In this document: positions 48,803 to 50,583 of the stretch, in pieces
Numbering within the stretch: position 1 is the first letter of the stretch
How the letters are laid out: each line of letters begins with the position of its first letter
UHGV virus genome: UHGV-1380027
Length of the DNA stretch: 64,000 bases
Source of the DNA: a virus
Strand: one strand, 5' to 3'
The notes under the pieces: model-generated
Told to the model about the DNA's origin: nothing
Database searches by the model: none
What the model saw: only the letters and a program-made list of their open reading frames with translations
Made by a program: the position numbers and the translations under genes

Positions 48803-48840
48803 AACGAAAAAACCCCGCAGCTATACAGCTAACGGGGCGG
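48803..48840 (-). terminator. hairpin with T-run (terminator/attenuator)
   Basis: minus-strand CCCCG...CGGGG hairpin with internal AGCT palindrome followed by TTTTTTCGTTTC. Confidence 0.4.
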
Positions 48841-49297: not shown

Positions 49298-49372
49298 TGG
49301 TGGCCCTGGGTGGAATTGAACCACCGTCTGGCGATTATGAGTCGCTTGCTTGAACCTTCCAGCTACAGGGCC
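49298..49372 (-). tRNA. tRNA-Met or Ile2 (anticodon CAT)
   Basis: Acceptor GGCCCTG/CAGGGCC, T arm GGTGG-TTCAATT-CCACC, anticodon loop CTCATAA, encoded CCA; CAT cannot distinguish Met from lysidine-modified Ile. Confidence 0.65.
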
Positions 49373-49373
49373 A

Positions 49374-49449
49374 TGGTGCTGATGGCAGGACTTGAACCTG
49401 CAACCTATTGATTACAAATCAATTGCACTGCCAATTGTGCTACATCAGC
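49374..49449 (-). tRNA. tRNA-Thr (anticodon TGT)
   Basis: Acceptor GCTGATG/CATCAGC, D stem GCAC/GTGC, anticodon stem ATTGA/TCAAT with loop TTTGTAA, T arm GCAGG-TTCAAGT-CCTGC, encoded CCA; 1-nt spacer from the previous tRNA. Confidence 0.75.
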
Positions 49450-49453
49450 AAAA

Positions 49454-49552
49454 GGTGCTAGGTGATGGAATCGAACCATCTATGTATTCAACGACTACCT
49501 CGTCTATTTTCAGGATTAAAAATCCTCGCCCTTGCCAAAGGGCTTACCTAGC
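49454..49552 (-). tRNA. atypical tRNA-like gene (about 99 nt; anticodon loop TTTTTAA, possibly TTT)
   Basis: Perfect 7-bp acceptor GCTAGGT/ACCTAGC, D arm GCCC-TTTGGCAA-GGGC, T arm GATGG-TTCGATT-CCATC, but about 31 nt between anticodon stem and T arm; no encoded CCA. Confidence 0.35.
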
Positions 49553-49650: not shown

Positions 49651-49741
49651 TGGCAGAGGATAATGGAATCGAACCATCATCGAGTCATCCTCAACGGGAC
49701 GGTTTTCAAGACCGCTTGAGCACCATTGCTCCCTACCCTCT
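49651..49741 (-). tRNA. tRNA-Ser (anticodon TGA)
   Basis: Acceptor AGAGGGT/ATCCTCT (one G-U), anticodon arm GCGGT-CTTGAAA-ACCGT as in bacterial tRNA-Ser, long variable arm, T loop TTCGATT, discriminator G, encoded CCA. Confidence 0.6.
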
Positions 49742-49855: not shown

Positions 49856-49943
49856 TGGTGGTGAGTGATGGAGTCGAACCACCCGAATCGCAATGATAAC
49901 AGATTTACAGTCTGCCCCGCTACCCCTACGGAATTAACTCACC
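49856..49943 (-). tRNA. tRNA-Tyr (anticodon GTA)
   Basis: Acceptor GGTGAGT/ACTCACC, anticodon arm GCAGA-CTGTAAA-TCTGT, long variable arm, T arm GGTGG-TTCGACT-CCATC, encoded CCA. Confidence 0.7.
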
Positions 49944-50073
49944 TAAATACTAATATTTAAATTCTTTTTAAAATAGCTAGTGTTCTAACCACTAACTATG
50001 AGGTATCGGTAAAGTGGTTACCGCCACTTGCCGAAGATTTACTCTGCTAAAGTAAGCTACATTAAAAAGAACT

Positions 50074-50206: not shown

Positions 50207-50235
50207 ATATTACACTGTTAGGCAAAGTTTGTCAA
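50207..50235 (-). promoter_or_regulatory. sigma70-like promoter for the tRNA cluster
   Basis: On the minus strand TTGACA, 17-bp spacer, TAATAT; lies about 50 nt upstream of the first tRNA 5' end. Confidence 0.5.
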
Positions 50236-50244
50236 GAAAATATT

Positions 50245-50583
50245 TTAACTATTGCCAACAGGCTGTATTTCTGTGGTAAATGGCATAAAAGGTGCTGGTT
50301 TTTCAGCCTCTTCCACTACCACCTCTTCCTCTTCACCAAACATCTCATCATATTCTTCCTGCATTCGGTCTGCCTTATCAAGAACATACTCTGCAATGCT
50401 TTGACGAATATTTTGTTTGGTTTTCGGGTCCAACATCAGCTCTCTTAAAACTTTGTGAGCTTCTGGAACCATCGCTATAAAAGATTCCTTCATATCAAGA
50501 ATGTTCTTCTCTAGCTGAATGGCGTTGGACTCCTCTTTCAGAGGTCTGCCTCTACGGCGACGCTTTTTAGTTGTATCCGCCAT
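50245..50583 (-). CDS. small protein with basic N-terminus and acidic C-terminus
   Basis: Start trimmed to an internal ATG (50581-50583) preceded by RBS GGAGGAAAC; N-terminus KKRRRRGRPLKEE, C-terminus EEEEVVVEEAE; the listed longer ORF runs into a non-coding GC-rich island. Confidence 0.4.
   Translation of the reverse strand: MADTTKKRRRRGRPLKEESNAIQLEKNILDMKESFIAMVPEAHKVLRELMLDPKTKQNIRQSIAEYVLDKADRMQEEYDEMFGEEEEVVVEEAEKPAPFMPFTTEIQPVGNS

Follow-up and report, generated by a model that had tools for sequence, protein, structure and literature searches.

The closest described kin of the RNA gene analyzed here are the allo-tRNAs and other irregular tRNAs (PMC5389517). The gene belongs to the tRNA cluster of the virus genome UHGV-1380027, of which a stretch of 64,000 nucleotides (nt), referred to as the window, was analyzed, and it occupies positions 49454-49552 of the minus strand. 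It is well supported that this element is a real and selectively kept gene for a tRNA-shaped RNA, and that it is the Vequintavirus member of a family extending throughout the Vequintavirinae. Apart from an extra arm in their variable regions, the element and the irregular tRNAs have in common a D arm of the tRNA-Sec type with a long stem and a tetraloop, which is predicted for the element. Further points of likeness of the allo-tRNAs are a U73 or G73 discriminator, diverse triplets including UAU and UCA, and a polycistronic arrangement; some are charged yet do not take part in translation (PMC5389517). They differ from the element in the split between acceptor and T stem, which is 8/4 or 9/3 in allo-tRNAs and 7/5 in the element, where A8 faces C65 and G49-C65 is invariant. 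The variable arm of allo-tRNAs adjoins the anticodon stem, while the hairpin of the element is flanked by conserved strands of 8 nt and 10 nt, and their anticodon arms are longer than the canonical arm, while that of the element is shorter. Allo-tRNAs proper are found in bacteria (Clostridia, Proteobacteria, and Acidobacteria), and only the (8/4) tRNA-Ser subgroup is also found in phages (PMC5389517), whereas the family of the element was found only in the Vequintavirinae.

Bacterial tRNA-Sec (RF01852) resembles the family in its long extra arm and in the D arm, which is predicted to have a stem of 6 base pairs (bp) and a 4-nt loop, and several lineages of the family carry UCA followed by A36 A37 A38. 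It differs by an 8/5 helix, G73, and U33, compared to 7/5, U73 or A73, and A33 in the family, whose scores with the tRNA-Sec model are below threshold. For the window copy the tRNA model outscores the tRNA-Sec model, the triplet is UUU and the discriminator is A73. The tRNA-Lys(UUU) of phage T5 is likewise phage-encoded with UUU, A73, C41, and an anticodon stem unlike that of the host near the AriB site (PMC11464382, PMC12409363). It is otherwise a normal tRNA of 76 nt that was shown to resist cleavage and to rescue infection, while in the element the arm is shortened, the core is swapped, 31 nt are inserted, and U39 is kept. As far as it is described in the work that cites it (PMC5389517), the tRNA-Other of Bacillus cereus is also a tRNA-like RNA with a non-standard body that is aminoacylated and apparently non-translational, but it is chromosomal, Gram-positive, and charged by a LysRS1:LysRS2 complex, and it shows no sequence relationship to the element.

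YrlA and the other bacterial Y RNAs and the tRNA-like domain of transfer-messenger RNA (tmRNA) also keep the acceptor, T arm, and elbow but replace the anticodon side, while the element retains a D stem and an anticodon-like arm. The Rfam models for YrlA, tmRNA, and permuted tmRNA gave no significant match at the element. The annotation of a curated relative names neither Ro60 nor SmpB, although most of its genes are hypothetical and neither protein was searched for. The stable RNAs C and D (species 1 and 2) of phage T4 are non-tRNA RNAs within a phage tRNA cluster that are co-processed with the tRNAs. They come from a different phage family, no such Rfam match was found at the element, and they are likened to it by description only. 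Among the other Rfam families considered (ribozymes, YrlA, tmRNA, and C4-like RNAs) there were only weak matches of the tRNA clan.

The element and its conservation

ARAGORN called a gene at 49454-49552(-) with the label tRNA-??? and the four-base anticodon (atcc). The Rfam tRNA family (RF00005) matched 49456-49552(-) with 37.5 bits relative to a gathering score of 29, and its alignment has a long insertion separating the anticodon stem from the T stem. The RNA reads GCUAGGU AA GCCC UUUGGCAA GGGC G AGGAU UUUUA AUCCU GAAAAUAG in its 5' half and continues with ACGAGGUAGUCGU (ACGA-GGUAG-UCGU) UGAAUACAUA GAUGG UUCGAUU CCAUC ACCUAGC A CC. It is 97 nt long up to the discriminator A (49456) and 99 nt with the encoded CC, which ends at 49454. 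The minimum free energy (MFE) fold of the single sequence is a five-arm cloverleaf of -34.8 kcal/mol (z = -4.2), and none of 200 shuffled sequences was as stable. A 7-bp acceptor stem free of mismatches and a consensus T arm had been seen in the original prediction, which was made from the letters only, and both were borne out. The helix is split 7/5 between acceptor and T stem, the T loop is of the UUCRANY type, and the G18G19-psi55C56 elbow is present. The positions of the parts are given in Table 1.

Table 1. Positions in the window of the parts of the element and of predicted transcription signals of the tRNA cluster
Feature	Position	Strand	Evidence
Whole tRNA-like RNA gene	49456..49552	-	ARAGORN; Rfam tRNA, 37.5 bits; family model, 104 bits; MFE z = -4.2
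Acceptor stem, 5' strand GCUAGGU (partner 49457-49463)	49546..49552	-	7/7 pairs in 32/32 distinct homologues; double compensatory changes in 5/7
Positions 8-9, A8 A9; A8 in place of the near-universal U8	49544..49545	-	A8 in 32/32 homologues
D arm GCCC UUUGGCAA GGGC, loop with G18 G19	49528..49543	-	Double changes in 3/4 stem pairs; G19 covaries with position 56
G26 and shortened anticodon-like arm AGGAU UUUUA AUCCU	49512..49527	-	Stem covaries; loop length and sequence depend on lineage
Variable region, 5' single strand G44-AAAA-UAG	49504..49511	-	G-AAAA essentially invariant; exception GUAAAA in relative L104
Variable-region hairpin ACGA GGUAG UCGU	49491..49503	-	Compensatory A-U to G-C in Avunavirus (ACGG...CCGU); different hairpins in other genera
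Variable region, 3' single strand UGA-AUACAUA	49481..49490	-	AUACAUA (49487-49481), abutting the T stem, in 32/32 distinct homologues
T arm GAUGG UUCGAUU CCAUC	49464..49480	-	Canonical T loop; double changes in 2/5 stem pairs
Acceptor 3' strand ACCUAGC, A73 (49456), encoded CC (49455-49454)	49454..49463	-	Read from the sequence; next base U
Sigma-70-like promoter TTGACA-17-TAATAT, upstream of tRNA-Arg (predicted)	50235..50207	-	10/12 consensus matches; consensus match alone
Candidate intrinsic terminator CCCCG-UU-AGCU-GUAU-AGCU-G-CGGGG + U6	48807..48837	-	Read directly from the sequence; inferred

A covariance model of the family was built from 12 representatives and gave 104 bits on the window copy. 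Homologues were found in all genera of the Vequintavirinae and in related metagenomic contigs, amounting to 44 copies, 32 of them distinct, with scores of 78-118 bits. Standard pairing was found in 98.7% of the cells compared among the 32 distinct homologues, and 14 of the 24 pairs had changes on both sides. The covariation score was 0.44 compared to 0.17 in shuffles, and pairing dropped to 34-49% when the partner columns were shifted by 1-3. The elbow pair was G19:C56 in 24 sequences and U19:A56 in eight, with no mismatch. The G form of the D loop, UUUGGCAA, occurs together with the T loop UUCGAUU, and the U form, UUUGUCAA, with UUAGAUU.

Sequence diversity was also low within the genus. Among eight distinct clusters from Vequintavirus 6.2% of the columns of the element were substituted, compared to 20-25% for the flanking spacers, 13-17% for tRNA-Tyr and tRNA-Ser, and 6.6% for tRNA-Thr. 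When the homologous loci were compared across genera, no relative carried an ordinary tRNA at the position of the element. A decaying tRNA pseudogene, one of the options in the original prediction, would fit the unusual anatomy, the labels tRNA-Pseudo and tRNA-OTHER in some records, and a loss by deletion in phage V18. However, every genus conserves the same aberrant architecture with compensatory changes in all stems, and the diversity is below that of the spacers and equal to that of real tRNAs. A pseudogene is therefore rejected as extremely improbable. In a comparison for paralogy, the tRNA of the phage that matched the element best differed by genome, being Thr, Ser, Gly, Cys, or Ile.

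The tRNA cluster of the window is 100% identical to that of several rV5-like Escherichia phages of the genus Vequintavirus. The 99-nt element was found in 124 phage records with 92-100% identity. With the copy from a Salmonella Seunavirus as query there were 189 matching records, all from the Vequintavirinae, and the hosts of these phages are Escherichia, Klebsiella, Salmonella, Cronobacter, Erwinia, Enterobacter, Raoultella, and Proteus. When BLAST walks were started from the most divergent copies, only Vequintavirinae and no relatives outside the subfamily came up. Searches with the family model covered IMG/VR and metagenome contigs retrieved by two sequence patterns, and no other match in them exceeded 23 bits, most being located at tRNAs called by ARAGORN. 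No bacterial or archaeal homologue was confirmed in a sequence-pattern scan of 185,579 genomes; the single pattern match in bacterial genomes, in a metagenome-assembled genome of Bdellovibrionales, was unsupported by the family model. Eighteen GenBank records (MG0656xx), mostly of 128-143 kb, bear the name "Campylobacter phage" and contain the element with 98-100% identity; for the two with a listed match to the whole cluster, that match has 97.5%. These look like E. coli phages of the rV5 type that were deposited with Campylobacter as host name.

The annotation of the element varies between records. It was found without any label, or as tRNA-Lys, tRNA-OTHER, tRNA-TERM, tRNA-Pseudo, tRNA-???(atcc), a suppressor, or a hypothetical protein, and the label tRNA-Lys is given in records whose methods cite tRNAscan-SE. 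The six tRNAs listed in the rV5 genome paper do not include the element, and our literature search found no paper on a tRNA-like RNA in the Vequintavirinae. Rfam gave no tRNA match (E<0.1) at the Seunavirus and Mydovirus copies, and ARAGORN failed to call the Seunavirus and Avunavirus copies on which it was run. For the Erwinia-type and metagenomic copies tRNA-Sec was the best Rfam family, with 36-38 bits and a gathering score of 47.

One clear natural loss of the element was identified. Phage V18 has a deletion that takes out tRNA-Ser and leaves a chimeric tRNA-like sequence (L002 1451-1547), in which the 5' half of tRNA-Tyr is followed by the final 42 nt of the element.

Departures from the canonical tRNA

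A swapped core, a short anticodon arm, and a variable-region module set the element apart from ordinary tRNAs. Nucleotides A8, U14, U15, and A48 are invariant in all 32 homologues, which is the reverse of the canonical U8:A14 and R15:Y48, whereas U was found at position 8 in 125 of the 133 distinct ordinary tRNAs of the same phage clusters. The D arm had been taken as canonical at first, which does not fully hold, since A8 and U14 stand in place of U8 and A14 and both RNAalifold and the MFE fold predict a 6-bp stem with a UGGC tetraloop formed through U14-A21 and U15-A20. These two pairs never vary and consequently have no support from covariation, which the 4-bp D stem does have.

From the invariant G26 to G44 there are 15 nt in the window copy and 15-16 nt in the family, compared to 17 in a canonical tRNA. 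The anticodon arm of the window copy may be read as 4 bp with a 7-nt loop (U32 U33 U34 U35 U36 A37 A38) or as 5 bp with a 5-nt loop (U31-A39 paired), while the MFE fold has 6 bp and a 3-nt loop. The original description of a 4-bp arm with the loop TTTTTAA is one possible reading beside these two. ARAGORN reached the anticodon AUCC through an alternative fold with an AUUUU/AAAAU stem and an 8-nt loop, and we rejected this fold because the AUUUU strand is missing in the other genera.

The loop differs between lineages. The Vequintavirus and Avunavirus copies have UUUUA or UUAUA on 5 bp, or 7 nt on 4 bp. Those of Seunavirus and Mydovirus have CAUCCA, CUUCCA, CCUCCA, or CAGCCA on 5 bp, those of the Erwinia phages and most metagenomic lineages have YAUCAAA on a 4-bp stem, and GUGAUA is also found. 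Most lineages have an A in place of U33, while among the 133 ordinary tRNAs position 33 was U in 122, C in 11, and A in none. The anticodon TTT that was originally read from the window copy stands for the Vequintavirus lineage and does not extend to the orthologues, which have UAU, 6-nt loops of the UCC type, or loops of the UCA type.

The lineages with YAUCAAA raise the question of a recoding tRNA, either an opal suppressor or a tRNA-Sec-like RNA where the triplet is UCA, or a frameshift suppressor given the 8-nt loop and the "atcc" label from ARAGORN. GenBank labels the copies of the Erwinia phages and several metagenomic copies tRNA-sup(tca), tRNA-Sec is the best Rfam family there, and the predicted 6-bp D stem with its 4-nt loop is compatible with such a role. 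Set against this, the tRNA-Sec scores fall short of 47, the helix is 7/5 and not 8/5, and A33 is conserved in the UCA lineages. UGA stops are still used at UCA-type loci, in five of 33 cases compared to about 21% elsewhere, although this sample is small. The AUUUU/AAAAU stem from which the frameshift reading is derived is not conserved beyond rV5, and the window copy, to which a recoding role does not apply, has no UCA. We consider a recoding role to be very improbable.

The variable region comprises 31-41 nt across the family. In the window copy the 31 nt that had been estimated between anticodon stem and T stem are made up of a strand of 8 nt, a hairpin of 13 nt, and a strand of 10 nt. A canonical variable region has 4-5 nt, or a class II stem-loop at most about 2 nt from the anticodon stem, and the element has neither; the earlier statement that it exceeds any standard variable arm is fair. 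The hairpin is exchanged freely among lineages for unrelated hairpins of 13-26 nt, while the G-AAAA and AUACAUA strands around it are fixed. The most sequence-conserved non-tRNA part of the element is this insertion, so that it is not accidental but forms a functional module. "A tRNA with an insertion", as first proposed, serves as a description, provided that the insertion is not taken for a chance event.

Two conserved single-stranded segments in a tightly packed cluster would also suit a role in cis or through base pairing, with the element being a spacer or processing signal of the polycistronic transcript, or an antisense RNA released by RNase P. RNase P acts on the tRNA-like C4 RNA of phages P1 and P7, which has two antisense loops. 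However, no site complementary to CTATGTATTCA with at most one mismatch was found elsewhere in the 64-kb window, where 1.6 would be expected by chance. The conserved elbow, the CCA end, and the invariant 7-nt motif would be needless for a processing signal, and the position in the cluster is not constant among genera. This type of role appears quite improbable.

tRNA-Lys likeness and possible roles

Identity sets were compared using the experimentally defined bacterial determinants (Table 1 of PMC9976931). With the 7-nt loop reading, the window copy carries the complete set for bacterial LysRS, which is A73 with U34 U35 U36. The copies of Seunavirus and Mydovirus have five of the six Gly determinants (U73, G1-C72, C2-G71, C35, and C36). 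G1-C72 and C2-G71 are nearly invariant in the family, the latter being present in 31 of 32 copies. Class II tRNA-Ser identity was rejected, as there is no G73 (the discriminator is A73 or U73) and C2-G71 is present, which is an antideterminant for SerRS (Table 3 of PMC9976931); only C11-G24 and the long variable region fit. The 3' end is U73-CCA in most lineages, A73-CC followed by U in rV5, and U73 or C73 without an encoded CCA in Avunavirus. The tRNA-Lys type of anticodon is not kept among the orthologues, which have UAU and loops of the UCC, GCC, and UCA types together with U or C discriminators.

Anti-phage nucleases commonly target tRNAs, and phages counter them with tRNAs of their own (PMC10264068, PMC11464382). 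At positions 30-40 the arm of the element, GAUUUUUAAUC, is identical in 10 of 11 nucleotides to that of E. coli tRNA-Lys, GACUUUUAAUC, the latter sequence being taken from PMC11464382. The PARIS nuclease AriB has the site U36AAUC|A41, and the A41C change substantially inhibits cleavage of tRNA-Lys (PMC12409363). The window copy has the U36-A-A-U-C of this site, but C41. The neighboring tRNA-Thr(UGU) at 49374-49449(-) has U36-A-A-U-C-A41, the same as the AriB site of E. coli tRNA-Lys and tRNA-Thr(UGU) (PMC12409363). Since it retains A41 it has no obvious change toward AriB resistance, unlike the element.

Our tentative preference, at somewhat less than even confidence, is that the element is a poorly decoding or non-decoding mimic of tRNA-Lys that blunts host enzymes directed against tRNA-Lys. 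The RNA would be transcribed together with the phage tRNA cluster and freed by RNase P and 3' exonucleases. In the window copy the base after CC is U, so the terminal A would need to be added, and the host CCA-adding enzyme would complete the 3' end. That enzyme also completes those tRNAs of T4 that lack CCA. The family keeps the 7/5 acceptor-T helix, the tRNA 3' end, an intact elbow between D loop and T loop, and a D arm predicted to resemble that of tRNA-Sec and the allo-tRNAs. This scaffold and the variable-region module may form a constant platform bound by a conserved partner, as implied by the constancy of the G-AAAA/AUACAUA module. The anticodon arm and the discriminator would act as a lineage-specific "bait" copying one host tRNA, which in the window phage would be tRNA-Lys(UUU), in view of the loop UUUUUAA, A73, and the arm match. 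Such a mimic may titrate or blunt enzymes directed at tRNA-Lys, for example anticodon nucleases of the PrrC, RloC, or AriB type, and would complement the RNA ligase and polynucleotide kinase repair genes of the phage.

Several observations weigh against this preference. The decoy step is suggested by resemblance alone. The loop of the window copy can be read as canonical (Y32, U33, UUU, A37, A38) and together with A73 it would suit a working tRNA-Lys equally well. Phages of the rV5 type have no other tRNA-Lys, although a larger relative (L104) has both. The sister genus Avunavirus keeps the fold with UAU, a U or C discriminator, and no encoded CCA, so a Lys bait is not required for the role of the family there. 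V18 is viable without the element. Finally, the conserved strands of the variable region may be structural and stand in for the canonical tertiary core instead of being a binding site.

The points that would suit a working tRNA lead to the foremost competing proposal, which we regard as possible but somewhat unlikely. The element would be an aberrant yet working tRNA-Lys(UUU), charged by LysRS, that decodes AAA and AAG and replaces the host tRNA-Lys when this is destroyed by PrrC, PARIS, or similar systems, its foreign anticodon stem and giant variable region making it a poor nuclease substrate. The complete Lys identity set, the U33 and A37 of the 7-nt loop reading, the 7/5 helix with canonical T loop and G18 G19, and the Rfam tRNA score above the gathering threshold are in agreement with this, as are the tRNA-Lys calls in records citing tRNAscan-SE. 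No other tRNA-Lys was found in the rV5 cluster by ARAGORN. There is also a precedent in the tRNA-Lys variant of T5 that acts against PARIS (PMC11464382), and the C41 present in the element corresponds to the A41C change that inhibits AriB. However, the 7-nt loop rests on four Watson-Crick pairs and a G-G mismatch, leaving the anticodon branch one layer short, the MFE loop has only 3 nt, and A8 and U14 are swapped. Orthologues with 5-6-nt or 8-nt loops, A33, and other triplets have the same body and motifs, and Avunavirus has UAU without A73. Since the loops of the orthologues are unlike Lys while the body is constant, the conserved function of the family cannot be Lys decoding, and a surrogate tRNA-Lys leaves unexplained why body and motifs persist where the loop cannot decode.

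Another option is an RNA that is charged but acts off the ribosome, or that titrates an aminoacyl-tRNA synthetase, EF-Tu, RelA, or a modification enzyme, similar to the tRNA-Other of B. cereus and inactive allo-tRNAs. In two clades the discriminator goes with the triplet, A73 occurring together with UUU and U73 together with UCC, most lineages encode CCA and conserve G1-C72 and C2-G71 within a non-canonical body, and charged, non-translating irregular tRNAs have been described (PMC5389517). Then again, no tRNA-dependent transferase was recognized in the annotation of the curated relative, most of whose genes are hypothetical, and the identity elements might be left over from a tRNA-Gly ancestor. 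We find a role of this kind improbable.

Returning to the mimic of tRNA-Lys, it can be generalized to a class of phage counter-defence RNAs in which a constant tRNA-shaped platform with an exchangeable bait in the anticodon arm traps or inhibits tRNA-targeting immune nucleases, or another tRNA-binding host factor, without decoding. We consider this generalization to be unlikely. If it holds, the bait would be Lys in rV5-type phages and Gly-like or UCA-like elsewhere, matching the host tRNA under attack. The sequence of the window copy would allow both decoding as a tRNA-Lys-like RNA and a non-decoding role as mimic or regulator; a tRNA-derived regulatory RNA was among the options of the original prediction.

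The surrounding tRNA cluster and implications

On the minus strand the genes of the cluster are ordered Arg, Tyr, Ser, the element, Thr, Met/Ile2 (CAU), and Pro. The element is separated from tRNA-Thr (49449-49374) by the 4 nt that had been counted in the original prediction, UUUU at 49453-49450, which follow directly after its CC. The place of the element within the cluster varies among genera. Besides the predicted promoter upstream of tRNA-Arg, the only match to a promoter consensus on the minus strand within the cluster was a weak one (9/12) at 49820-49791 in the spacer between Tyr and Ser. The candidate terminator is located beyond an open reading frame of 89 amino acids (aa) that comes after tRNA-Pro; a terminator scan with a loop limit of 3-8 nt did not report it. 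Co-transcription of the element with the cluster, as originally proposed, is plausible from this arrangement.

T4 repairs tRNA-Lys cut by PrrC using an enzyme set of the RNA ligase, polynucleotide kinase, and phosphoesterase type. The curated rV5-like phage EduardKellenberger (MZ501061) has genes for an RNA ligase, a polynucleotide kinase, and a phosphoesterase adjacent to each other at 125348-127356, about 4 kb from the cluster. The same genome has an annotated "ribosome hibernation factor" at 98010-98327.

Some of the neighboring tRNAs are irregular as well. tRNA-Ser(UGA) at 49651-49741(-) has A8 and may be drawn with an 8-bp acceptor stem (AGAGGGUA/UAUCCUCU) and a 4-bp T stem (AUGG/CCAU), in which it resembles the phage (8/4) tRNA-Ser of PMC5389517. 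Its best Rfam family was tRNA-Sec with 39.4 bits, and the tRNA model was below threshold. tRNA-Tyr(GUA) at 49859-49943(-) was found by Rfam only (39 bits) and was not called by ARAGORN; its acceptor and D stems are separated by 3 inserted nt. The spacer of 130 nt between tRNA-Arg and tRNA-Tyr (49944-50073) is missing in most rV5-like relatives, many records covering 88% of the query, while in the relative 241Ecol014PP the match to the cluster spans about 350 nt more than the query and an HNH endonuclease gene lies under it. The CAU tRNA at 49298-49372(-) was called Met by ARAGORN and is annotated as a tRNA-Ile reading AUA in the curated BASEL relative, which requires lysidine at position 34.

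Directly after the element, Seunavirus and Avunavirus have another irregular tRNA-like RNA, which is about 165 nt long (L001 ~1621-1786; L012 ~1612-1778; L003 ~1615-1787). An insertion of about 105 nt, which contains a hairpin with a CUGAUCA loop, interrupts the D stem GCUC...GAGC of this RNA, and the RNA has an anticodon-like arm with CGG or UGG after G33 and a short T-like hairpin. RNAalifold gave 43 pairs, 13 of them with double changes, from three sequences only. A phrog_3330 protein of 112-125 aa is encoded in or beside the tRNA cluster in every genus examined (window 50245-50583(-); L001 2215-2592). Its N-terminus is rich in arginine (KKRRRRGRP), and its C-terminus is acidic. The 112-aa protein had no Pfam match; its homologues are hypothetical where the sources name them, and most are nameless. 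Possible identities are a small terminase and an N-like RNA-binding protein.

More than 180 sequenced phage genomes contain the gene, and many of these phages are candidates for therapy or biocontrol against E. coli O157, Salmonella, Klebsiella, Cronobacter, and Erwinia. For the annotation of these genomes this means that the element should be left out of counts of codon-supplementing tRNAs and of suppressors. Its unusual anatomy is well supported, and it adds to the natural tRNA folds one in which the 8-14 and 15-48 pairs are reversed and the variable region is elaborated. A link to tRNA-targeting immunity, which is suggested by analogy, would be testable, and the rV5-like phages of BASEL make the element a genetically tractable candidate for studying how phages may handle immune systems that cleave tRNAs.

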